Notes: generated by a model from the letters alone, not told the origin. A DNA stretch of 64,000 nt from Chthoniobacteraceae bacterium (GCA_031409655.1 JANNXQ010000012.1:43509-107508); one strand, 5' to 3'. Shown: positions 20,955 through 33,219, numbered from the stretch's first letter. Made by a program: numbers and translations.

Positions 20955-22235
20955 ATGCACCTTCCGACCCTCCGCGTGTTCACGGCGATCCTCGCCATCT
21001 CCCTCTTTCAGGTCCTCGCAGCCCAGGCGGATGTCGTGACGGATTGGAATACCATCGCCCTCCAGGCGATCAAAACGGACAAGACGCCGCCGCCAAAAGC
21101 TTCGCGCGCCCTCGCGATTCTCCACGTCGCGATCTATGACGCCATCGGCGCCACCACCAAGACGCATGACCCCTATCTCGTTAGTTGGCGGGCGCCGCGA
21201 GTCGTCTCCGTGGATGCGGCCGTGGCCGCCGCTGCGCGCGCCGTGCTCGTGCAGCTCTATCCCGCCCAAGCGCCCACCTTCGACACCGCCTATGCAAATG
21301 CCATCGCGACCCTGCCGAAGAGCACCGGTCGCCAGGCCGGAATCGCGTGGGGCGAATACGTCGCCAAGCGAGTGCTCGCGCATCGCGCGAATGATGGGGC
21401 CAGTGCCGTCGTTACTTACACGCCTGGCACTGCGCCTGGTGATTGGCAGCCCACGCCACCGGCACTCGCCGCCGCGCTCCTCCCCCAGTGGCCAAAGGTC
21501 CGCCCGTTCGTGATGAACAGCGGTCACCATTTTCGCCCGCCCCCACCGCCGCAGTTAGCCACCGCGCTCTACGCCTTTGACTTTAATCTCGTGAAAGATC
21601 TCGGCTCGAAAACCAGCACCACGCGCACTGCGGAGCAGTCCGCGATCGCGACTTTCTGGGCAGATGGTGGCGGGACGGTGACGCCTCCCGGGCACTGGAA
21701 TGTGATCGCCCGCGATGTGGCGAATGTCCGCGGAAACACGGTCGCGCAAAATGCCCGCCTTTTCGCGCTCCTCAATGTCGCTCTCGCCGATGCCGCGATC
21801 TGCTCGTGGGATTGTAAATACTCGGACAATCTCTGGCGCCCGATCACCGCCATCCGCGCCGCCGACACCGATGGCAACAGCGCCACCAGCGCGGATCCCA
21901 CCTGGACGCCGTTCCTCGTGACCCCGCCCTTTCCGGAGTACATCTCCGGTCACAGCACCTTCAGCGGCGCCGCCGCCACGGTTCTCGCGAGCTTCTTCGG
22001 GGCGGACGATATCCCCTTCACGACCACCTCCGAAGATTTGCCCGGCGTGACGCGTTCCTTTAACTCCTTCTGGGAAGCCGCTGCGGAAGCCGGCCTCAGC
22101 CGGGTCTTCGGAGGCATCCATTTCATGTCCGGCAATCAGCAGGGTCTCCAGTCCGGCGCGCGGCTCGGTGCCTTTGTCACGGAAAATGTCTTTGGTGAAT
22201 GCGTGGGTCGCCCGCCCCGGACGGCTAAGCAGTAA
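20955..22235 (+). CDS. Secreted vanadium-dependent haloperoxidase / PAP2 superfamily protein
   Basis: Signal peptide, DVVTDWN, K......RP (WDCKYSDNLWRPIT), PPFPEYISGHS, SRVFGGIHF. Confidence 0.85.
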   Translation: MHLPTLRVFTAILAISLFQVLAAQADVVTDWNTIALQAIKTDKTPPPKASRALAILHVAIYDAIGATTKTHDPYLVSWRAPRVVSVDAAVAAAARAVLVQLYPAQAPTFDTAYANAIATLPKSTGRQAGIAWGEYVAKRVLAHRANDGASAVVTYTPGTAPGDWQPTPPALAAALLPQWPKVRPFVMNSGHHFRPPPPPQLATALYAFDFNLVKDLGSKTSTTRTAEQSAIATFWADGGGTVTPPGHWNVIARDVANVRGNTVAQNARLFALLNVALADAAICSWDCKYSDNLWRPITAIRAADTDGNSATSADPTWTPFLVTPPFPEYISGHSTFSGAAATVLASFFGADDIPFTTTSEDLPGVTRSFNSFWEAAAEAGLSRVFGGIHFMSGNQQGLQSGARLGAFVTENVFGECVGRPPRTAKQ

Positions 22236-22322: not shown

Positions 22323-24503
22323 GTGCGCCACCACTCCCCAACCTCCGACATTGCCGAAGGACTCCGCCATCATCAGGCAGGGCGTCTGGAAGAGGCGGCA
22401 AAAAATTACCGGCAAATCCTGACGGAAGACCCCGAGCAGCCGGATGCGCTGCACCTTCTCGGAGTGGTCGCGGGGAGCATCGGTCAGCTCGATGAGGCCG
22501 TCGAACTCATCTCGCAGTCGCTGCGTGTGAACCCCAACAATGCCTCCGCGATTAACAATCTCGCAGGGGTGCTGAAGGATCAGGCGCGATATCCCGAAGC
22601 CATCGAATTTTACGAAGCCGCCATCGCGGCGGCGCCGAACGAAAGCTACATCCACAGCAATCTCGGCAACGCCCTGCGTGACGCCGGACGACTCGAAGAA
22701 GCAGGAACGTGCCATCGGCGCGCCCTCGAACTAAGTCCCGATTCGTACGCGGCGCTTAGCAATCTAGGCTCCGTGCTCGACGCCCAGGGTCGGCTCGCTG
22801 AGGCGGTGGAGTGCTTTCGTCGCGCCTTGCAGCTCAACCCCGACAGCCACGAGACGCACGTCAATCTTGGCGTGACTTTGAAACGGGAAGGTCGGCTCTC
22901 GGAGGCGGAGGAGTGCCTGCGCCGCGCGCTCGATCTTCAGCCGCGCTCCGATGCCGCGCTGGCAAATCTCGGTTCCCTAATGCTCCAGCAGGGGCGCGTG
23001 GAGGAAGCCTTCGTCACGCTGGAACTCGCCCTCAGCGTCAATCCGCGGTCGGCCGTCGCGCTGATCAACATGGGCAATGTCCTCAAGGACCTGGGCCGAT
23101 TCGCGGCGGCGCTGGAGTGCCTGCAAGCGGCCGTCCAGCTCGCCCCGAGATCCCATCTCGCGCACAATAATCTCGGCACCGTTCTCAATGAACTCGGTCG
23201 CGCTGCCGAAGCCGCGGAATGCTTCCGCCGCGCTCTCGAGCTTCAACCCGACTACCACTGGGCGCACAGCAACCTGCTTTTCACGCTGCAATATCTGCCG
23301 GGGATCGATCGCGCGGAACTCTTCGCTGACCACCGTCGCTACGACGAAAAATATGCGCGCCATTTTACCGAGCGCGCTGCGTCGCACCCGAATGCGCGCG
23401 ATCCGAATCGCCGCCTGCGCATTGGTTACGTCTCCGGTGATTTCCGCGAACACTCCGTCGCCTTCTTCATCGAGCCCGTCCTCGCCAGTCATGATCGCGA
23501 TCAGTTCGAGGTCTTCTGCTACGCGAACCAGGTCGGCAATGACGCGATGACCGCCCGCTTGCGGGCGCTGGTCCCGCATTGGCGCGAGGTTGCGTCGCTC
23601 AGTGACGACGCCCTCGCGGCCCGCATCCGCCGCGACGAGATCGACATCCTCGTCGATCTCTCCGGCCACACCGCGCGCCATCGCCTGCTCACCTTTGCCC
23701 GCAAACCCGCGCCCATCCAGGTGACGATGATCGGCTACATGCACAACACGGGGCTGAGCGCGATGGACTATCGCATCACCGACGTGACTCTCGACCCGCC
23801 CGGCACGAGCGAGACCTTGAATTCCGAAGAACTCATCCGCCTCCCGGCAGGCGCTGCGACTTTCCGCCCGCCGGCCGAATGCCCTCCGGTCAACGACCTC
23901 CCGGCACTGACGAGTGGTTACGTGACTTTTGGGTCGTTTAACAATCTCGCGAAGGTCACGCCCGAAGTGATCGCGACGTGGGCGCAAATCCTGACGGCGG
24001 TGCCAGGCTCGCGCCTTCTGGTCGTCGGTCGTGGCGGCAATGCTGTGAAGCCAGAGATGGAAGCGCACGGCATCGCCGCGGAGCGCGTTGAAGCGATCGA
24101 TCGTCAGCCACTGCGGAAATTCCTCGAATTGCATCACCGCGTCGATCTTACCCTCGACACGTTTCCCTACAACGGCGGCACCACTGGCTTGATCGCGATC
24201 TGGATGGGAGCGCCTTTTGTTACCCTCGACAGTGGCCACACCACGGGACAAGCGGGCGGCGGGCTGCTCCGCCCCATCGGGCTCGCTCAACTCATCGCTG
24301 CTGACCCTGCAGATTATGCGGCGAAGGCCGTGGAGGCCGTGTCCGATCTCCCTCGTCTCGGGGAGTGGCGGTGTTCCTTGCGCGGTCGCATCGCACCATT
24401 GCTCGGTGGTGGCGAGGCTTACACCGGTCAGCTCGAAGCCGCCTACCGCGACAAGTGGCGGACGTGGTGCGCCCGGGAGGTGCCCGTGAACAACTACTCA
24501 TGA
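22323..24503 (+). CDS. TPR-containing SPINDLY/OGT-like protein glycosyltransferase (GT41)
   Basis: About nine TPRs, then RLRIGYVSGDFREHSV, DILVDLSGHT, KPAPIQVT, FGSFNNLAKV, LDTFPYNGGTT. Confidence 0.92.
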   Translation: MRHHSPTSDIAEGLRHHQAGRLEEAAKNYRQILTEDPEQPDALHLLGVVAGSIGQLDEAVELISQSLRVNPNNASAINNLAGVLKDQARYPEAIEFYEAAIAAAPNESYIHSNLGNALRDAGRLEEAGTCHRRALELSPDSYAALSNLGSVLDAQGRLAEAVECFRRALQLNPDSHETHVNLGVTLKREGRLSEAEECLRRALDLQPRSDAALANLGSLMLQQGRVEEAFVTLELALSVNPRSAVALINMGNVLKDLGRFAAALECLQAAVQLAPRSHLAHNNLGTVLNELGRAAEAAECFRRALELQPDYHWAHSNLLFTLQYLPGIDRAELFADHRRYDEKYARHFTERAASHPNARDPNRRLRIGYVSGDFREHSVAFFIEPVLASHDRDQFEVFCYANQVGNDAMTARLRALVPHWREVASLSDDALAARIRRDEIDILVDLSGHTARHRLLTFARKPAPIQVTMIGYMHNTGLSAMDYRITDVTLDPPGTSETLNSEELIRLPAGAATFRPPAECPPVNDLPALTSGYVTFGSFNNLAKVTPEVIATWAQILTAVPGSRLLVVGRGGNAVKPEMEAHGIAAERVEAIDRQPLRKFLELHHRVDLTLDTFPYNGGTTGLIAIWMGAPFVTLDSGHTTGQAGGGLLRPIGLAQLIAADPADYAAKAVEAVSDLPRLGEWRCSLRGRIAPLLGGGEAYTGQLEAAYRDKWRTWCAREVPVNNYS

Positions 24504-25666
24504 AACGCATCGAACGTCTCAAGGCCCGCCTCGTCGCCGCCGCCGATCAAGCCCGCCGCAATCCCTCCTTTGGCCTGCCCTCCTGGGCTGATGAGAGCGT
24601 GCTCGCATCGCTCTGCAGCCGTCCCATCGTCTGCTGCGGCACCGGGTTTTGGGCGCAGGAGTTTTTGCGGAATGCGCGCGATCTCGACGTGATCGCGCTG
24701 GTCGATGATTGCCACGGCGGGAAGCAGATCCTCGGGCTGCCATGCCTCGACACCGCCGGCTTCCTGAAACTCCTGGCGAAGCGCCCTGACGTCGTCTGTA
24801 TCAACACCGGCCAAAGCGACGCCGGCTACAGCCACTTTGAGCGCCTCGGTCTCGAGCACGGACTGAAGATGCTCGATTGTCTGCAAGCGGTGCGCGCGTT
24901 TCGTTTCACGCCCGACATTCGTGTGGCCGACTGGCTCAACCCGATTGTCACCCGCATAGACGAATTTCTCGCCGTCGGCGAACGCCTTGCCGACCCACTC
25001 TCCGTCGAGACGCTCTACTCGGTGTTGCTCTATCACCTCGAGACCGACCGCGAGCACCTGCTCTCGGTCAATCGTCCTGGCGAGGCGACTTACTTTCGTT
25101 CAGGTCTCTTCACCATTCGCGACCGCGAGTCCTATGTCGATTGCGGTGCGTTCGACGGCGATAGCGTGCAGCAATTTATTCGAGTTGCGAAGGGGAAGTT
25201 TCATCGCATCCACGCCTTCGAACCCGACCCTCAGAATTTCGCCGGGCTTTCCTCATGGCTCGCTTCGGAGCCGCGTTACACCGACCGCGTCTCGGTGCAT
25301 CAAAAGGCTGTGGGCAGTTCCAACGGATCGATCCAACTGAGTTCGACCGGGGATGCCGGCGCCTGTGTGCCGCTCTCCTCGAACGGTGCTGCGACCTGCA
25401 CCGTGGATCTTGTAACTTTGGACGGGGCGGTCGATGGCCCGATCTCCCTTTTGAAACTCGACGTCGAAGGACACGAAATCGAAATCCTGCGCGGCGCTGT
25501 CGGACACCTCGAACACAACGGGCCTCGCCTCGCCATCTGCGCCTATCATCTGCCTGGAGATCTGATCGATCTGCCCGCCTTCATCGAGCAACTCGACATC
25601 GGCTATCGCATCGGTATTCGCCACCATAGCGCCACGCGCTACGACACCGTGCTCTACGCATTTTGA
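24500..25666 (+). CDS. FkbM family methyltransferase
   Basis: YVDCGAFDGDS, AFEPDPQN, LKLDVEGHE, LAICAYH; ATGA overlap with the GT41 stop. Confidence 0.9.
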   Translation: MKRIERLKARLVAAADQARRNPSFGLPSWADESVLASLCSRPIVCCGTGFWAQEFLRNARDLDVIALVDDCHGGKQILGLPCLDTAGFLKLLAKRPDVVCINTGQSDAGYSHFERLGLEHGLKMLDCLQAVRAFRFTPDIRVADWLNPIVTRIDEFLAVGERLADPLSVETLYSVLLYHLETDREHLLSVNRPGEATYFRSGLFTIRDRESYVDCGAFDGDSVQQFIRVAKGKFHRIHAFEPDPQNFAGLSSWLASEPRYTDRVSVHQKAVGSSNGSIQLSSTGDAGACVPLSSNGAATCTVDLVTLDGAVDGPISLLKLDVEGHEIEILRGAVGHLEHNGPRLAICAYHLPGDLIDLPAFIEQLDIGYRIGIRHHSATRYDTVLYAF

Positions 25667-25670
25667 GTCG

Positions 25671-26867
25671 ATGACGCCGCTCATTCCACCTGCTGGCTAC
25701 TTTGATGCTGCGACGTTTGCCGCGGAACGCGAGCGTGTGTTTTTGCGGAATTGGCTCTTCGCTGGCACCACCGCGCAATTGCTGAATCATGAAGACTACC
25801 GGCGCATTGAGATCTGCGGCGTGTCCGTGATCCTGCAAAATTTCCACGGCGAGATAAAGGCGTTCAACAACGTCTGCACGCACCGCTTCGCCCGGATCCA
25901 CGCGGAGCCCGCTGGCAACCGGCCCCTCAAGTGCCGGTATCACGGCTGGATCTACAATGGCGAAGGACTGCCCTACGCGATCCCACGCAAACCGTTCATC
26001 TCCGAGATCACGCCCGCGACACTGTGCGACTACCGGCTAAGTCGCTGGCACGTCCGAACCGTCGGCCCGCTCATCTTCATCAAGAAGGAGGATGCTGGCG
26101 AGGCGCTGGCCGACGACGACTTCGACGCGCAACTCGACGAATATGCCGCGCCCTTGGCGCAACTCGCCGCAGCTTGCGGAGAACTCGTCGAGCAGACGGA
26201 TTACGAAGTGAAGGCAAACTGGAAGCTCGTCGTGGAAAACACGCTCGAGGGCTACCACGTCGATTGCGTTCATCCAAATACGATCCGCAAGCTCGGGATG
26301 AGTGGCCTGACAAAAGTAACGAACGACGAGGCGCCCAGTTCCGCGCCTGCTCTGGGCAGTCGCTTCGACTTCGCCGGACAAAACTCCGCCGTCTTCTCGC
26401 CGCTAAATCCCGAGGTCTCGGCTCGCATGGATCGAACTTACAAATTTCTCGCAGGCCGTCCGCAGCAGCTCGACGGCTACCGCCACTACTACTTCTTCCC
26501 GAATTTTGTCATCGCCTCCACACGGGGCGAGTCCTTCAGCATCCAGCGCGTCCTGCCGATCGACGAGCAGACGACGCAACTCTCCAGCTTCCTTTTTGCC
26601 ACGAATGGTCTCGGCGATCTCACGAAGATGGAAGCGGCACTGCGGAAGCAGTTCTACCAATCCGCCGCGGAGTTTGTGCAGGCCATTTTCGTCGAGGATG
26701 GCGCCATCTGTGAAGAGGTGCAGCGTGGCGTCGCCTTTGCGCACACGGCCGGGGTGCTCAGCGACGAAGAGGAACGTATCTGCGCCTTTCACACCGCCTA
26801 CCGCCACGCCCTCAATCCGCGCTGGAGCACAGCCGTCCCGGCGGTGCTCCGTGGCGCGACCCGATAA
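25671..26867 (+). CDS. Rieske non-heme iron oxygenase alpha subunit
   Basis: Rieske CTH...CRYH; mononuclear iron site ENTLEGYHVDCVH...ED. Confidence 0.92.
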   Translation: MTPLIPPAGYFDAATFAAERERVFLRNWLFAGTTAQLLNHEDYRRIEICGVSVILQNFHGEIKAFNNVCTHRFARIHAEPAGNRPLKCRYHGWIYNGEGLPYAIPRKPFISEITPATLCDYRLSRWHVRTVGPLIFIKKEDAGEALADDDFDAQLDEYAAPLAQLAAACGELVEQTDYEVKANWKLVVENTLEGYHVDCVHPNTIRKLGMSGLTKVTNDEAPSSAPALGSRFDFAGQNSAVFSPLNPEVSARMDRTYKFLAGRPQQLDGYRHYYFFPNFVIASTRGESFSIQRVLPIDEQTTQLSSFLFATNGLGDLTKMEAALRKQFYQSAAEFVQAIFVEDGAICEEVQRGVAFAHTAGVLSDEEERICAFHTAYRHALNPRWSTAVPAVLRGATR

Positions 26868-26888: not shown

Positions 26889-27134
26889 ATGGAAATCCAC
26901 CAATTCGTCCGCCACTTCGAAAACGCCATTGAAGGCATCGAGCCCGATTCACTGACGCCCGACACTAAGTACCATCTGCTCGCGCAGTGGGATTCGCTCG
27001 GGCTCCTTTGCCTCCTCGCCATGATCGACTGCGAATACAATGCGCAGGTTCCCGGCATGGAGCTGAAGAGTTGCGACACCCTGCGCGACCTCTTCGATCT
27101 CGTCTGCTCAAAGCTCCACGTCCAGGCCGCCTGA
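26889..27134 (+). CDS. Acyl carrier protein
   Basis: 81 aa, acidic, WDSLG phosphopantetheine site, TLRDLFD. Confidence 0.88.
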   Translation: MEIHQFVRHFENAIEGIEPDSLTPDTKYHLLAQWDSLGLLCLLAMIDCEYNAQVPGMELKSCDTLRDLFDLVCSKLHVQAA

Positions 27135-27135
27135 T

Positions 27136-28188
27136 ATGGCCCTCGCCGTCTTGCGCCGCGTGCGGATCGCCGGAGTCGCGTCCGCCGTCCCAAAGGAAGT
27201 GGTGTCCAATTCGGACTACACCGTCCTTTCTGAGGAGCAGCGCGAGAAGATCATCAAGTACACCGGCATCCGCTACCGCCGCTGGGCGCCGAAGGAGCTC
27301 TGCTGCTCCGATCTTTGCCAGGCCTCCGCTGAGAAGTTGATCGCGGAGCTTTCCTGGAATCGTGAAAGCATCGGCGCGGTCGTCTTTGTCTCGCAGACGC
27401 CGGACTATCCATTCCCCGCCACTGCACAGCTTCTCCAGCATCGACTCGGCCTTTCAAAGTCGTGCCTCGCCTTTGACGTGAATCTCGGTTGCTCCGGCTA
27501 CACCTACGGCCTCCACATCCTCGGCAGTTTGCTCGAAGCCTCCGGCATGAAGCGCGGACTGCTGCTCGCGGGCGATGTCTCGAAAATGCACGGCGATAGC
27601 GATCCGGCGAGTGCGGTGCTCTTTGGCCACGCGGCCACGGCCACCGCGATGGAGTTCTCTCCCGGGACCAAGCCGCTCTACTTCGACATCGGCAGCGATG
27701 GCGGCGGACACAAAGTCATCTACGTGCCCGCCGGTGGCTGCCGGAATCCGGTCGGTGCGCAATCCTTCCAGAAAGCCTCGCTCGAAAGTGGCGGTGCGCG
27801 CGGCGAGACCGACGTCGTCCTCGACGCCGCGGAGATCATCAATTTCACCATGCGCGAAGTGAGCGTCTCCATTAAGCGGCTGTTGGAATTCGCGGGACGC
27901 ACCGTGCCCGACATCGACGCCTACGTCTTTCATCAGGCGAATCAATTCATCAACAGCCAAGTCGCGCGGAAGATCGGCATCAAGGCCGATAAGGCACCCA
28001 CGACGCTCTACGATTTTGGGAACACCAGCTCGGCGACCATCCCGCTCACCATCACCGCGAAGCTCCGCGAGCGCATCGCCGCCGGGCCGCAGAAAGTCGT
28101 GATGTCCGGTTTCGGCGTAGGGCTTTCGTGGGCCTCGACTTACTGGGAGGCGGAGGACGTGGCGTGTCCGGAACTCGTCGAAGTATGA
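27136..28188 (+). CDS. Ketoacyl-ACP synthase III (FabH-like), intact Cys-His-Asn triad
   Basis: TGIRYRR, DVNLGCSGY, VFHQAN, FGNTSSA, GFGVGLSW. Confidence 0.92.
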   Translation: MALAVLRRVRIAGVASAVPKEVVSNSDYTVLSEEQREKIIKYTGIRYRRWAPKELCCSDLCQASAEKLIAELSWNRESIGAVVFVSQTPDYPFPATAQLLQHRLGLSKSCLAFDVNLGCSGYTYGLHILGSLLEASGMKRGLLLAGDVSKMHGDSDPASAVLFGHAATATAMEFSPGTKPLYFDIGSDGGGHKVIYVPAGGCRNPVGAQSFQKASLESGGARGETDVVLDAAEIINFTMREVSVSIKRLLEFAGRTVPDIDAYVFHQANQFINSQVARKIGIKADKAPTTLYDFGNTSSATIPLTITAKLRERIAAGPQKVVMSGFGVGLSWASTYWEAEDVACPELVEV

Positions 28189-28925
28189 CGCATCCCTTTT
28201 CTCTCTCTGGCAAGACGGTGCTCATCACTGGCGCGACCGCGGGCCTCGGTCGGCAGACCGCGATCACTGCGGCGCAGATGGGTGCGCGGGTCCTCGTCAC
28301 GGGGCGAAACGAAGAGCGTCTCGCCGCGACCCACAGGCAACTCGAAGGCTGTGGGCACCTGGCGATCGCCGCAAATCTCGTCGAGGAGAAGGAACGCGAA
28401 GCCCTTGTTAGTCAGCTTCCAGCGCTCGATGGCATCGTCCACTGCGCGGGGGTCACGTTGCTGCATCCGTTTAAGTTCAGCGACGAAAAGCGCTACCGCG
28501 AAGTGTACGCGATCAATGTCGAAGCGCCGCTTTTCCTCACTCAACGCCTCTTCAAAAGTAAGCGGCTCACCAATGGCGGGTCGATCGTCTTTATCGCTTC
28601 GCTGGGGGCCTTCATCGGTGCGCGGGGGCACTCGATCTATGCGGGATCAAAGGCGGCCATCATCGGTATCATGAGGGTGCTGGCGCACGAACTCGCCGGT
28701 AATGGCATCCGGGTGAATTGTCTCTCGCCCGGAATGGTAAAGACCGAGGTGGTCGATGGCTTTTCCCAGCAAGTCTCCGCCGAAGTCGTCGCTGCCGATG
28801 AAGCCCGCTACCCGCTCGGCTACGGCACGCCGGAGGATGTCGCCAATACCGCGGTCTTCTATCTCGCCCCCGCGAGCAAATGGATCACCGGCACCAACCT
28901 CATCATGGATGGAGGCCTTACTTAA
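28185..28925 (+). CDS. SDR oxidoreductase (FabG-like ketoreductase)
   Basis: TGATAGLG, YAGSK, RVNCLSPG, WITG..L.MDGG. Confidence 0.92.
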   Translation: MTHPFSLSGKTVLITGATAGLGRQTAITAAQMGARVLVTGRNEERLAATHRQLEGCGHLAIAANLVEEKEREALVSQLPALDGIVHCAGVTLLHPFKFSDEKRYREVYAINVEAPLFLTQRLFKSKRLTNGGSIVFIASLGAFIGARGHSIYAGSKAAIIGIMRVLAHELAGNGIRVNCLSPGMVKTEVVDGFSQQVSAEVVAADEARYPLGYGTPEDVANTAVFYLAPASKWITGTNLIMDGGLT

Positions 28926-28927
28926 TT

Positions 28928-29125
28928 ATGCCCATGTTCTCAATCGAACCCACCAAGCTCGGACGTTACATCTCAGGGACTGCTGCGGACGCGCGCATCC
29001 CGGATCCTGATGTGGAAATTCCCCTGAAACGAACTCCGGAACGAGGTGCCAAAGCCTCGCGTCGCAGTCTCGCTAAACCGTGCTCAAGCGCCGGCGACGA
29101 GGCTTCGGGCGCTCACCAAAGCTGA
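28928..29125 (+). CDS. Putative 65-aa small protein inside the operon
   Basis: Starts 2 nt after the SDR stop and ends 1 nt before the next ATG (TGA-T-ATG). No motif recognised. Confidence 0.4.
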   Translation: MPMFSIEPTKLGRYISGTAADARIPDPDVEIPLKRTPERGAKASRRSLAKPCSSAGDEASGAHQS

Positions 29126-29126
29126 T

Positions 29127-30170
29127 ATGCCCACGCTCTCGATTTCGAATGTCCGCTTCGCCGGACTCGCCGTCGCGGTGCCTCCAGTCGAAGAGGTTTC
29201 CTGGTCGGAAGTTTGGGGTGCGGATCACCTCCACGTCGCGCAACAGCGCCACGAAACGCCCTTTCGACGAATGGCGAAAGTCGAGCAGTGTCAGTCCGAT
29301 CTCTGTGTCGATGCTGCACGGAGTCTTCTCGCCGATCTCAAGTGGGCTGCGGCGAGCGTTGACCTCGTCGTGATGGCTACGCTCACGCCTGACTACCCGA
29401 TTCCGGCGACGGCGATTATCGTGCAGGACCGTCTCGGTATTCCCAAGAGCGCCGCCGCCTTTGATCTCCCAAGTGGCTCGCTGGGCTTCATCCATGGCTT
29501 GCAACTCGTCGCCAGCATGCTGAATCCGGGTTCGTTTAAGCGCGCGTTGCTCCTCACTGGCGAGGTCTCGAAGACGCCGGATACTTCCGATCACTGTGCG
29601 CCCCACCGCGCGATTCATGGCCATAGCGGGAGCGTGTGCGCTCTGGAGTTTTGGGAAGGGGCAGAGCCGATCTACTTCGATGCCGGCGGTGACGGCGCGG
29701 ATTTTGATGCGCTCTATATGCCCATCGGCGGCGTGCGCAATCCGCCTCGGCCCGAGATGTTCAATGACCCCGAAAGCGTGCGCGGGGCGAGCGAGTTTGT
29801 CCTGGATGCGGCGAAGCTTGGAGCACGGGCGCACGACGAATTGCCCGCGTCGATGCTGCGTGTCCTCGACGCGGCGGGTCACACTTCCCGGGAAGTAGAT
29901 GCCTGTTACCTGAGCGAACTTCCGTTGCCAGTGGAGTCCGCGATCCGCCGGGAAATGCAGTTTCCGATCGACCGCTTGCACAGTGTCATTCCGGACTTCG
30001 GGGCGAGCGGATCGGGCACCATCCCACTCGCCATGCTGGCCCGCGAGGCTGCGCGTTTGCGCGCCGGTCGGCAGACCTCGCTACTCAGCGCCATGGGCCC
30101 TGGCCTTGCCTGGGGAAGCGTGTTGCTCGCCACCGATTCCATCTCCTGCCCGGAACTCCTCGAAGTCTGA
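29127..30170 (+). CDS. FabH-like protein with degenerate catalytic triad
   Basis: Aligns along its length with 27136-28188 (SDLC..AA..L, TPDYP.PATA, FDAGGDG, GPGLAWG) but has DLPSGSLG, YLSELP and FGASGSG at the triad positions. Confidence 0.85.
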   Translation: MPTLSISNVRFAGLAVAVPPVEEVSWSEVWGADHLHVAQQRHETPFRRMAKVEQCQSDLCVDAARSLLADLKWAAASVDLVVMATLTPDYPIPATAIIVQDRLGIPKSAAAFDLPSGSLGFIHGLQLVASMLNPGSFKRALLLTGEVSKTPDTSDHCAPHRAIHGHSGSVCALEFWEGAEPIYFDAGGDGADFDALYMPIGGVRNPPRPEMFNDPESVRGASEFVLDAAKLGARAHDELPASMLRVLDAAGHTSREVDACYLSELPLPVESAIRREMQFPIDRLHSVIPDFGASGSGTIPLAMLAREAARLRAGRQTSLLSAMGPGLAWGSVLLATDSISCPELLEV

Positions 30171-30173
30171 CCC

Positions 30174-31160
30174 ATGCTTACTGGCATCCTCGATAATCTG
30201 CTCCTCAACGGTGACTTCCTGCCTGATCTCTGGACCCGTCTGCCCGACCCACGCGCGTCCTTGGAATGCCCCAACTGGAGGCAGACCTTCGCCGTGGATC
30301 GCTGGAAGATCCGCTACGCGATGCCGCATGGCGCGGGCATTCGCCAGGCCATGTCCAGCGATGTGCCGATGCAAGCCGCCGCCGCGCGCAGTCTCGAACT
30401 ACGGGGCGCCACAGGCGTCACTCAGCCGGTCTTTCTCGGACAGCGCATTGAGGCTGCGGAGGTTGTTCGTTACCGGCGGCGGATGATCTTTTCCGCCTGG
30501 GTACGAATCGAGCATCCCGACAAAGGCCCTAAAGAAGTGGACCTGACGATCGGTACCGCGCGGGACCCGGATGTCTTTGGTAATCCTTTCAATGACAACG
30601 TCCGCAACGAAGTCAGCATTCGCTTTGAAGAAGCGCCGGTGGGCCGCTGGTGGCTTATCGAACGAGACATCGACGGTCGCGGCTTTGCCGCGAATGGGCT
30701 CTCGGTGGAACTGGAGTTTCCCGCGGACCTACTGGACACCCCGGATGCCCGCGTGCGGGTCGCGGCCCTGCGGCTCACGGATGCATCCGCGGCGGGCCGT
30801 TCCATGGAGCGGGCCGCTGGCGTCGAACGCCTCCTCGCGCGCCGTTTCTTCCAGCGCCATGATTCCAGCACCGTCAACTCCCTGGGCCGCGCGCTCGTGG
30901 TCAATGCGCACGAGCTGCACTTCCAATTCACCTTCGCCGAGATGCGCGCCTTTCCCGCCGTTACGCTGACGCAAGACGAATCCCAGCTCTGCGTCTTCAA
31001 TCTCGAAGGCCTCCCGCAGACGGGCTTTACTTGTGACGTTACTTATCGCTCGTGTGGCTCTGTCATCCTCCGCGCCACCAAGGAAAACCACGGTTTGCGT
31101 GATGGCTTCCTTTCCTTTGTTGGCACCGGCGGCGCGATCCTTCTGGACGCGGAGTTATGA
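30174..31160 (+). CDS. Hypothetical protein resembling a phage tail-fibre C-terminal / carbohydrate-binding domain
   Basis: NLLLNGDF...VDRW...GQRIE...FSAWV...ERLLARRFFQ...F.EMRAFPAVT...LDAEL* matches the motif series recalled for phage tail-fibre tips (NxIINGDF, DRW, QxIE, LCQRYY, MRxxPTV, DAEL). Confidence 0.6.
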   Translation: MLTGILDNLLLNGDFLPDLWTRLPDPRASLECPNWRQTFAVDRWKIRYAMPHGAGIRQAMSSDVPMQAAAARSLELRGATGVTQPVFLGQRIEAAEVVRYRRRMIFSAWVRIEHPDKGPKEVDLTIGTARDPDVFGNPFNDNVRNEVSIRFEEAPVGRWWLIERDIDGRGFAANGLSVELEFPADLLDTPDARVRVAALRLTDASAAGRSMERAAGVERLLARRFFQRHDSSTVNSLGRALVVNAHELHFQFTFAEMRAFPAVTLTQDESQLCVFNLEGLPQTGFTCDVTYRSCGSVILRATKENHGLRDGFLSFVGTGGAILLDAEL

Positions 31161-31960
31161 CGACATTTCGTTTCGCGGAGTTCGGCGTGGAGCGCATTGA
31201 AAAGGGACGATCCACTTTCATCGCCGAAGACTCCCGGCAGCCAGCCTGGCGGGAATTTGAATCCTGGCGCGACGCCGGCAATCAGCCATTGCCGCTCGCG
31301 CGCCGTTCTCCGTTTGCAGTTGCCCGAGATCCCAAGCGTTTGTGGATCATCGGAGCCGGCGGCTTTGGTCGTGAGATTTTCGGAGCCGCACAATCGGCCC
31401 TCGGACACCGGTCGGAGTGGGAGATCGCCGGGTTCCTGAATGACATCGTTGATTCGCTGGACGCCTTCCCGGAGTTCCCGCGGATCGCGGCCGGGACCGA
31501 CTACGAACCAGAGGAAAATGACGTCTTCACTTGCGCGATTGGCGAACTGCCGGGGCGCCGTGATGTCTGCGAAAAATTCCGCGCGCGCGGAGCAAGGTTT
31601 GTCAATCTCATCCAGCCGATGGCCTGCGTCTCTCCGAGCGCGGAGCTGGGGCAGGGGATTATCGTCGAAGCCATGGCGGGCATCGGGGCGAATGCGCACA
31701 TCGGCGATTTTTCGACCGTCCTTAGTCACGCCAATGTCGGACACGATTCAAAGATCGGTGCGTATGTTTCCATCTCGCCGTTTGCCGCAATCCTCGGTCG
31801 CACCGAGATCGGCGAAGGCGTGGTCATCGGCAGCCACGCGGTCGTCTTGCCCGATGTGAAGATCGGTCCCGGTGCCACCGTCGGCGCCGGTAGTGTGGTG
31901 CTGAAGGATGTGCCTGCGGGCGCGACGGTCTTCGGCGTTCCGGCGATGCGGATCAAATGA
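31157..31960 (+). CDS. NeuD/PglD/VioB-like sugar acyltransferase with an extra N-terminal domain
   Basis: IIGAGGFGRE, hexapeptide repeats, HANVGHD, VGAGSVV, GVPA. The first ~47 aa are not part of the family. Confidence 0.9.
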   Translation: MTTFRFAEFGVERIEKGRSTFIAEDSRQPAWREFESWRDAGNQPLPLARRSPFAVARDPKRLWIIGAGGFGREIFGAAQSALGHRSEWEIAGFLNDIVDSLDAFPEFPRIAAGTDYEPEENDVFTCAIGELPGRRDVCEKFRARGARFVNLIQPMACVSPSAELGQGIIVEAMAGIGANAHIGDFSTVLSHANVGHDSKIGAYVSISPFAAILGRTEIGEGVVIGSHAVVLPDVKIGPGATVGAGSVVLKDVPAGATVFGVPAMRIK

Positions 31961-33219
31961 CCATGGCACCTACAACGGCACTCTTCGATTTGCCCGCTGC
32001 CGCGCTTACCGCGGGCGAGACCGTGGCGCCGCGGCTGTTGGGAATTCTCGGAGGCGAGCCTGCTTTTGCCGAACCGCTCCACGTCGGGCGGCCAAACATC
32101 GGCAACCGCGCGCGCCTCCAGGAGCGCATTGATGCGATGCTGGATGCACGGTGGTTTTCCAATGGCGGTCCGCTGGTCCGCGAATTCGAGGACCGCATCG
32201 CGAAGTATCTCGGAGTGAAGCACTGCATCGCGACCTGCAATGGGACCACCGCGCTGATGCTCGCGATCCGCGGCCTCGACCTGAATGGGGAAGTCATCGT
32301 CCCGTCGTTCACTTTCATCGCCACCGCGCACGGCCTGCTCTGGCAGCAGACCAAGCCCGTCTTCTGCGACATCGATCCCGCAACGCACAATCTCGATCCT
32401 GTCTCCGTCGAGAAGCTGATCACGCCGTGGACCACCGGCATCATCGGCGTGCATCTGTGGGGTCGTCCGTGCCCGACTACCGCGCTCCAAGCTCTCGCAA
32501 AGAAACACCGACTGAAGCTGCTCTTCGACGCCAGCCATGCCTTCTCCTGCACGAATGACGGCGATTTCATTGGCCGATTCGGCGACGCCGAAGTCTTTAG
32601 CTTTCATGCGACGAAGTTCCTCAACGCCTTTGAAGGTGGCGCCGTGGTCACGCAGAACGATGCACTCGCAGAGAAGCTGCGGCTGATGCGCAACTTTGGC
32701 TTCACTGGCTACGACAACGTCGAACACATCGGCATGAATGCGAAGATGACCGAGATCTGCGCGGCCATGGGCATCACGGGGCTCGAAAGCATCGACGATT
32801 TCATCGCCGCCAATTTCCGCAACCACGCCGCCTACCGCAGCGCCCTCGCCGACTTGCCGGGAATCATTGTCGCCGAGTATGCGGAAGGCGAGAAGAGTAA
32901 CTACCAATACGTGATCGTCGAAGTGGACCCCGATGAGTGCCCGCTGAATCGCGACGAACTCCTCCGCGTCCTCCACGCCGATCGCGTGCTGGCCCGCCGT
33001 TACTTTCATCCCGGCTGTCACCGCATGGAGCCCTACCGCACCCTTTATCCAGCTTCCGGCCTCGAACTCCCGGAGACCGAACTCCTCTCCGAGCGCATCC
33101 TTGCCCTCCCGACCGGCACCGCGGTGAGTCAGGACGATGTGGAGAGGGTCGGCACAATCATCCGCACCGCCCTCGTCAGCGCGGCAGAAGTGCGCGCGAC
33201 CATTGCCCAGATGGGCTAG
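31957..33219 (+). CDS. DegT/DnrJ family NDP-4-keto-6-deoxyhexose aminotransferase (DesI/VioA-like)
   Basis: LHVGRPN, WFSNGGPLVREFE, DASHA, SFHATKFLNAFEGG (PLP Lys), NAKMTE, RRYF.PGCH.MEPY. Confidence 0.9.
   Translation: MTMAPTTALFDLPAAALTAGETVAPRLLGILGGEPAFAEPLHVGRPNIGNRARLQERIDAMLDARWFSNGGPLVREFEDRIAKYLGVKHCIATCNGTTALMLAIRGLDLNGEVIVPSFTFIATAHGLLWQQTKPVFCDIDPATHNLDPVSVEKLITPWTTGIIGVHLWGRPCPTTALQALAKKHRLKLLFDASHAFSCTNDGDFIGRFGDAEVFSFHATKFLNAFEGGAVVTQNDALAEKLRLMRNFGFTGYDNVEHIGMNAKMTEICAAMGITGLESIDDFIAANFRNHAAYRSALADLPGIIVAEYAEGEKSNYQYVIVEVDPDECPLNRDELLRVLHADRVLARRYFHPGCHRMEPYRTLYPASGLELPETELLSERILALPTGTAVSQDDVERVGTIIRTALVSAAEVRATIAQMG

Follow-up and report, generated by a model that had tools for sequence, protein, structure and literature searches.

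The genes described here lie within a window of 64,000 nucleotides, the whole stretch of DNA that was analysed, from a Chthoniobacteraceae bacterium (GCA_031409655.1, JANNXQ010000012.1:43509-107508). Those that make up the operon are all on the plus strand. Family scans identify, in this order, a TPR-GT41 glycosyltransferase (22323-24503), an FkbM-family methyltransferase with an approximate start (24500-25666), the alpha subunit of a Rieske oxygenase (25671-26867), an acyl carrier protein (ACP, 26889-27134), a VioS/FabH-like KAS III in which the Cys-His-Asn triad is present (27136-28188), a VioR/FabG-like SDR reductase (28185-28925) and a second KAS III paralogue whose residues no longer include the catalytic Cys, His and Asn (29127-30170). 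Next come a gene referred to here as X328 (30174-31160), a fused sugar N-acyltransferase (31157-31960) and a DegT/VioA/DesI-type sugar aminotransferase (31957-33219). Between the SDR gene and that of the second KAS III lie about 200 bases in the window (28926-29126); in related loci these two genes abut. Just upstream of the operon, positions 20955-22235 hold a vanadium haloperoxidase-like gene, which is missing from a locus of the same genus (L002), where an adenylate cyclase-like gene abuts the GT41 gene. Promoter and terminator scans gave a signal no better than chance.

X328 is an ORF of 328 aa that carries the motifs NLLLNGDF, VDRW, GQRIE, LARRFFQ and EMRAFPAVT and ends in DAEL, and its TGA stop overlaps the ATG of the following ORF (267 aa) as ATGA. 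A sequence-only reading of this DNA had taken these features as signs of a phage tail-fibre tip followed by its chaperone-like partner, and reading both ORFs confirms every one of them. The ATGA junction also appears on contigs from two more runs of one study, which are not independent of the source campaign. As that reading had also remarked, the pair stands apart from other phage genes, none being recognised by a Pfam scan of 32 other ORFs of the window.

Taken alone, X328 has no match in Pfam, PHROGs or NCBIfam, its best E-value against PDB sequences is 0.23, and a tblastn search of phage genomes came back empty; since the window protein by itself gives no direct PHROG or tblastn phage match, its link to phages needs a profile or a fold. 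Both are available. Among 8000 scored candidates 71 homologues were found, which places the family beyond chance; nearly all measure 310-338 aa, with intact frames and full length, and the two that bear an organism name are both Verrucomicrobiota. A profile from 63 of these homologues retrieves 1050 cluster representatives (E<=0.001); outside the close family, what it matches is a stretch of 300-odd residues at the C-terminal end of longer proteins. Of the 61 longer relatives that were scanned, most align with PHROG 4492 (tail fiber protein) in its C-terminal 300 positions, and X328 aligns with the fibre protein P0078 at 32% identity from residue 8 to residue 328, through to the DAEL end. Predicted caudoviral proteins, many of them named tail fiber, resemble the AlphaFold model of X328 (pLDDT 93, pTM 0.88) across its two domains together (best TM 0.78, E 3e-20). 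With solved structures the match is confined to residues 7-204, a CBM4-like jelly roll (CBM4-2 structure 4bj0, Z 14.7, rmsd 2.7, 163 aligned residues), both PDB fold lists for the whole protein being filled by CBM-domain matches; no solved structure of the fibre-tip/partner family was found. Resemblance to the tail proteins of phages, whose absence would have undone the proposed tail-fibre-tip origin, was thus found by profile and by fold, and X328 is confirmed as homologous over its whole length to a phage tail-fibre C-terminal module, composed of a CBM4-like domain and a tip domain. Six other proteins of about 700-720 aa (P0079, P0080, P0081, P0082, P0085 and P0086) contain two tandem copies of the CBM-like domain and a different C-terminal domain; P0079 has no Pfam match.

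In the model, the CBM4-like jelly roll takes up residues ~8-205 (30195-30788), a neck with a helix follows at residues 206-230 (30789-30863), and a beta tip domain runs from residue 231 to the DAEL end at residue 328 (30864-31160). The fold of residues 7-204 resembles that of CBM4, CBM16 and CBM22, from which it differs in its identity of only ~10-15% and in the lack of a Pfam match. Only 7-9 residues precede the folded module in 58 of the 71 homologues, against more than 15 in 130 of 136 distant relatives. The earlier remark that no shaft or baseplate part is present holds for X328, which is a stand-alone module without anchor or shaft, but it is not diagnostic: phages too encode versions of the tip module of 313-339 aa, and the missing shaft is therefore no proof of domestication. 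In a quick tree of 98 modules, rooted at the midpoint and with many X328 rows flagged for biased composition, the 24 X328 rows all fall into a single clade (SH-aLRT 100), which branches among phage-type tips with a stem length of 0.95; this argues for one capture and then a long separate evolution. A profile search of the genome frames finds X328 to be the only tip module of its genome, and its GC3 of 0.73 is the same as that of the operon. The tip domain, variable in phages, is conserved in the bacterial family, more so than the CBM-like domain (66% vs 49%). For this reason a new role of X328 may lie in the tip rather than in the CBM domain, where a conserved lectin site is not favoured. Export of X328, or its display as a surface lectin or adhesin (the flagellum being one possible site), would draw on the CBM fold of a receptor-binding protein and on the connection of the operon with flagella. 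We regard it as highly improbable, given the few residues that stand before the folded domain, a highest 19-residue hydropathy of 0.97 with no signal peptide or membrane segment seen, and the fusion of the partner to a cytoplasmic enzyme.

The ORF downstream of X328 opens with a domain of 47 aa (31157-31297), recognised by profiles and by a model, which is joined by a variable, weakly constrained linker (31298-31336, from alignment and selection) to the NeuD/PglD/VioB-type enzyme (31337-31960). TIGR03570 starts only at residue 62, in agreement with the extension of about 47 aa that had been described ahead of a NeuD/PglD domain, and residues 1-60 match no model of Pfam or NCBIfam. Every aligned orthologue (11 of 11) carries the extension, in which R5, G10, T20, F21, W31, W37 and G41 do not vary. 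A true start of the acyltransferase further downstream, named at the outset as an objection to the fusion and for which TTG codons at 31289 and 31340 lie in frame, is ruled out by this conservation and by the constraint on the extension.

A profile of the 11 bacterial extensions alone, searched over 20464 six-frame segments from 171 viral and phage loci, gives 29 viral matches (E<=0.1), and 29 of the 29 lie directly behind a tip module. They include gp51 of cyanophage S-2L, matched over the whole profile (E 8e-6), whose gene likewise overlaps the fibre gene. Conversely, when a profile was made of viral downstream genes only, using 114 of the 204 unique ORFs found in that position, each of the 11 extensions scored against it over residues 1-58, with P from 2e-11 to 2e-3. 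The extension of the window itself is weak alone, reaching 9.6 bits on the viral profile (E 3.2), at rank 1 of 90985 genome frames. Two other figures, 135 of 136 small-domain matches behind tips and hhalign scores of 100% and 97.9%, are partly circular because the profiles were built from selected matches. When stand-alone relatives of the extension were sought with a word index, not one of the 93 candidates scored, and the phage relatives came to light only through gene context. When viral loci were fetched by the small gene alone, a tip module was found upstream in 75 of 79 (from 84 loci, 5 having too little upstream DNA; three more, two query loci and one start-cut, were dropped), and the pairing of tip and partner in phages is close to obligate. 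The extension is confirmed as a member of the small-gene family found downstream of such fibres in phages, and both its phage origin and the phage gene order of the pair are borne out by the reciprocal matches. Tandem arrays of tip modules with a common N-terminal sequence and a single partner gene were seen at the viral or proviral loci L156, L163, L166, L167, L177, L183-L186 and L190-L192. A fusion born inside a phage has no support, as no phage record was found with the whole fusion: coverage of 80% is reached by 0 of the 56 phage records that match, and in the 15 listed the match begins at residue 60 or later. Some phage records (H41, H43, H46-H49) contain NeuD/PglD-type acyltransferases of their own, without the extension.

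Of 114 phage cases, 83 have the small domain as a protein by itself and 31 have it at the front of a longer one. Among 21 of these long members that were scanned, it is followed by PF16778 in 4 and by DUF4376 in 3, with 2 above the cut-off in each case, and the acyltransferase therefore occupies the cargo position here. The domain is modelled as three strands and one helix (pLDDT 90). It has no Pfam match (11 and 46 members searched) and no solved relative, and fold searches returned nothing clear, with a best Z of 4.1 for a 52-residue model and no Foldseek match under E 1.7. What stands of the chaperone-like character first ascribed to the extension is its descent from a phage gene behind a fibre; no chaperone match was obtained in Pfam or PDB, PF16778 and DUF4376 lie behind the domain, and the small domain is itself at most a candidate chaperone. 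The extension might nevertheless be a folding helper of X328 and nothing else, which touches it transiently and came to sit on the acyltransferase by an accident of insertion, leaving X328 with a separate task, inside or outside the pathway, and not as an enzyme subunit. Genes right behind fibre genes often encode chaperones that leave the mature fibre, S-2L gp51 is annotated as tail fiber assembly-like, and PMC7289586 places DUF4376, one of the domains seen behind the small domain, on homologues of the tested chaperone V22 gp27. Co-occurrence, selection and covariation would fit equally well. This explanation is considered unlikely, though it deserves serious weight; the fusion is never split in 12 genomes and in the 5 metagenome loci with a visible gene start, and the DUF4376/PF16778 part itself is missing here.

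Residues 62-263 of the fusion match TIGR03570 (NeuD/PglB/VioB) with 185.1 bits against a cut-off of 160.8, and display the PglD_N plus left-handed beta-helix architecture of NeuD/PglD/VioB proteins. His196, the catalytic histidine, aligns with the PerB histidine that reads as Asn in the mutant structure 4eaa, and the acyltransferase is probably active since this residue is invariant in 11 of 11 orthologues. Aminotransferase, acyltransferase, ACP, KAS III, reductase, methyltransferase and glycosyltransferase occur together, at family level, as in the viosamine island of Pseudomonas syringae pv. tabaci 6605 and the glycosylation island of P. aeruginosa PAK; according to PMC3927599, the viosamine island builds the N-acyl, O-methyl aminosugar of P. 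syringae flagellin. The present operon differs from these islands in its TPR-GT41 enzyme, its Rieske oxygenase, its dead second KAS III and its phage-derived pair. The second KAS III (29127-30170) is still kept beside X328 or the fusion in related loci in spite of the lost catalytic residues; it may be the partner without catalysis in a KAS III heterodimer, and so another subunit of scaffold type in this operon. Several operons contain an extra Rieske gene, a second acyltransferase without the extension and a different or second FkbM gene (L003:2638-5697, L005:1501-5717, L006, L009 and L019), and these variable genes point to variable sugar decoration.

By analogy with such islands, and from its association with flagella, the operon is most likely a flagellin glycosylation island; the sequence-only reading had not drawn this connection with flagella. 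Flagellin is encoded in 11 of 12 genomes that carry X328 and in 47 of 139 that do not (Fisher p 1e-4, which is an overstatement, related genomes not being independent samples), and within the two genera in which both traits vary the numbers are 6 of 7 carriers against 10 of 33 (p 0.011). FliD and FliS genes follow the DegT gene in one carrier (G002), and in another (G489) a FliD-like gene, recognised by eye, lies ~3 kb and a flagellin gene ~10 kb upstream of the operon. Against the flagellin link stand the flanks of the window, in which no flagellar gene was found, the genome G509 (93% complete), where the operon is present and flagellin and FliD were not found, and the 47 flagellated genomes without the module. 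Across the 151 genomes of the Chthoniobacterales family that were surveyed, flagellin genes are very patchy between and within genera, occurring in 58. In G002, a restriction-modification gene of MmeI type is located directly upstream of the operon (L001:8-2401).

X328 was found in 12 of the 151 family genomes, and the same 12 have the acyltransferase orthologue, always with the extension, so the fusion is not confined to this assembly, a doubt that the sequence-only reading had raised about itself. The carriers belong to a group of freshwater and soil bacteria. The operon KAS III likewise occurs in 12 of 151 genomes, 11 of them in common with the X328 carriers; the two exceptions are contig ends, one contig stopping right after the second KAS III (G003) and the other starting inside X328 (G524). 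Of 11 loci from named Verrucomicrobiota MAGs, 8 have the overlap together with the full fusion. A gap of 230 bases replaces the overlap in one locus, and in the remaining two X328 has moved ~4 kb downstream and follows other genes; in both genomes with the displaced X328 the acyltransferase retains its extension. Seven metagenome loci comprise 5 with the pair, one that is cut and one with a phage-type fibre and partner. The neighbours at all X328 loci are glycosylation enzymes, and the expected conservation of the fusion beside GT41 and DegT (VioA-type) genes is seen in the genome survey and in the related loci. Estimates of dN/dS are 0.15-0.26 for X328 and 0.07-0.43 for the extension (7 listed pairs of 66), with mean pN/pS values of 0.50 for X328, 0.47 for the extension, 0.72 for the linker and 0.37 for the enzyme domain, at a dS near saturation. 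Homology of both halves, fusion, co-inheritance, purifying selection and a single clade are thereby shown for this pair.

A neutral prophage relic would be hard to reconcile with purifying selection, with intact full-length frames in 71 homologues or with a GC3 like that of the operon. X328 could alternatively serve as a spare tip for a tailocin, an injection system or a prophage elsewhere in the genome, and among four other carriers that were searched G509 does have matches to baseplate J and sheath, and G001 a sub-cut-off sheath match. However, no baseplate J, sheath or tape measure gene was found in the genome of the window, G002 or G489 (MAGs 95-96% complete), and the presence of X328 follows the operon, not tail genes. 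Either form of this explanation is largely refuted and barely plausible, whereas the suggestion that the pair has been domesticated is upheld by the selection on it, by its co-inheritance and by the absence of tail machinery among the genes sought in the window's own genome.

The patchy presence of X328 (12 of 151 genomes, with none in wider samples of 400 genomes of the phylum and 300 of the class) would also be expected of an anti-phage accessory, in which the anchorless tip and its partner poison the assembly of phage fibres of related type within the cell, or act as a partner sink or decoy, in connection with an island that alters the flagellar glycan receptor. The diversity of flagellar glycans has been proposed to be driven by phage pressure (PMC7099621). 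This idea, which the sequence-only reading had offered as one possible function, fared poorly: PADLOC (2023 model library) matched 0 of 5 proteins, and no signal peptide or membrane segment was seen. In addition, the family is one clade on a long stem, far from the sampled phage tips, its most conserved part is the tip domain that varies in phages, and the fusion to a metabolic enzyme would be left unexplained. We judge it distinctly unlikely.

Contact between the partner domain and X328 was examined through covariation. Corrected mutual information was computed for 178 non-redundant tip-partner pairs out of 201 (13 of the input pairs being bacterial) from automatic alignments in a reduced alphabet; the signal comes mostly from phage pairs, and residual relatedness remains. 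It peaks between residues 211-221 of X328 and W37, G41, P46 and E24 of the partner, the E24 column looking badly aligned. The maximum z is 9.2, compared with 5.1+-0.5 in 30 free shuffles, and pairs with z >4 number 14 of 1100 for the neck, 9 of 7172 for the CBM domain and 2 of 3256 for the tip domain. When partners were exchanged only inside clusters of related tips (5 to 30 clusters, 160 shuffles), z rose to 8.1 at most and the neck count to 9. The strongest position is R213: partner G41 is present in 108 of 112 pairs with R213 in the tip, and in 13 of 66 with other tip residues. The bacterial family retains both sides, R213 being nearly invariant in X328 and W37 and G41 invariant in the extension. 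These coupled positions are suggestive of a contact between the partner domain and the X328 neck, and to this extent they favour the docking proposed in the sequence-only reading; stable docking is not told from transient chaperoning, because a transient chaperone contact gives the same covariation signal.

Taken together, the observations are best explained by a mechanism in which a two-gene phage cassette, made up of a tip module and its small partner, would have been captured once by an acyl-aminosugar glycosylation operon in the Chthoniobacterales. Well supported by the gene content are the enzymatic steps, in which DegT and then the fused acyltransferase would make an N-acylated 4-amino-4,6-dideoxy NDP-sugar, ACP, KAS III and SDR would supply the acyl group, and the TPR-GT41 enzyme would transfer the sugar to a protein, probably flagellin. 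With moderate support, the 47-aa domain would still bind the X328 neck (211-221) and so tether X328 to the acyltransferase in the cytoplasm, much as in phages it brings other cargo domains to the fibre tips. More speculatively, X328 would be a non-catalytic accessory subunit, sugar-binding or scaffolding, that holds a substrate or product or organises the pathway. The fibre-tip and acyltransferase families are both trimeric, and a 3:3 complex of X328 and acyltransferase could fit. We give about an even chance to the proposal that X328 is an accessory subunit in an acyl-aminosugar pathway for flagellin glycosylation and is tied to the acyltransferase by a docking pair exapted from phages. A shade less confidence is placed in the broader notion that tip and partner form an intracellular docking pair, used to build a hetero-oligomeric glycosylation enzyme, with the 50-residue domain as a portable cargo tag. 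Against an accessory subunit, the second acyltransferase paralogue of several operons has no extension, and viosamine islands elsewhere function without any X328-like protein (PMC3927599).

The closest relatives of the pair are phage tips of the PHROG 4492 type, such as S-2L gp50, gp19 of Stenotrophomonas phage Silvanus and the fibres of Synechococcus phage S-H34, with which X328 shares the two-domain module, the motifs, the AEL end and the same downstream partner, in phages often with the same 4-base overlap. Unlike those fibres, X328 has no anchor or shaft and no phage context, is present in a single copy, and forms its own clade with a conserved tip. The extension is homologous to the 45-50 aa domain encoded behind the tip gene in the small fibre-partner families PHROG 34019 and PHROG 20370 (N-terminal part of S-2L gp51). 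It differs from PF16778/DUF4376 chaperones such as V22 gp27 in that the cargo is an enzyme, and the small domain has neither a Pfam family nor a solved structure. Tailocins, contractile injection systems, type VI secretion and gene transfer agents are all phage tail genes fixed in bacterial chromosomes. To our knowledge, such domestications keep whole machines that act outside the cell, in contrast to the two genes found here in a biosynthetic operon. Looser parallels, set beside the pair by description, are neuO of prophage CUS-3, an acetyltransferase gene adjoining the tailspike and thus a receptor-modifying acyltransferase near a phage tip gene; WcaM, a tailspike-like protein in the colanic acid operon; and FlaGrab. 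We know of none of these three with a fibre-partner domain fused to an enzyme. FlaGrab is a non-virion protein of a Campylobacter phage that binds the flagellar glycan (PMC7099621). While this kind of glycosylation island and the domestication of phage tails as a process are already known, no precedent for a two-gene exaptation with an enzyme fusion was found in a literature search that covered titles and abstract openings, with few subscription papers and no supplements.

Two tail genes are maintained here under selection inside a biosynthetic operon, one of them fused to an enzyme. The bacterial pair offers a small, anchorless and probably soluble model of a very common tip-partner family, and covariation singles out residues R213 and the neck 211-221 of X328, and W37, G41 and P46 of the partner. 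If the pair docks, phage structure would have entered the enzyme architecture of the cell by a new route, on which a phage receptor-binding protein has been joined to the making of what is probably a phage receptor. Should the full mechanism hold true, a widespread and unnamed phage domain of 50 residues would be a tag on the necks of CBM-type tips that carries variable cargo, and in these bacteria a receptor-binding protein would have become part, as a subunit, of the machinery with which the cell builds its own surface glycan.
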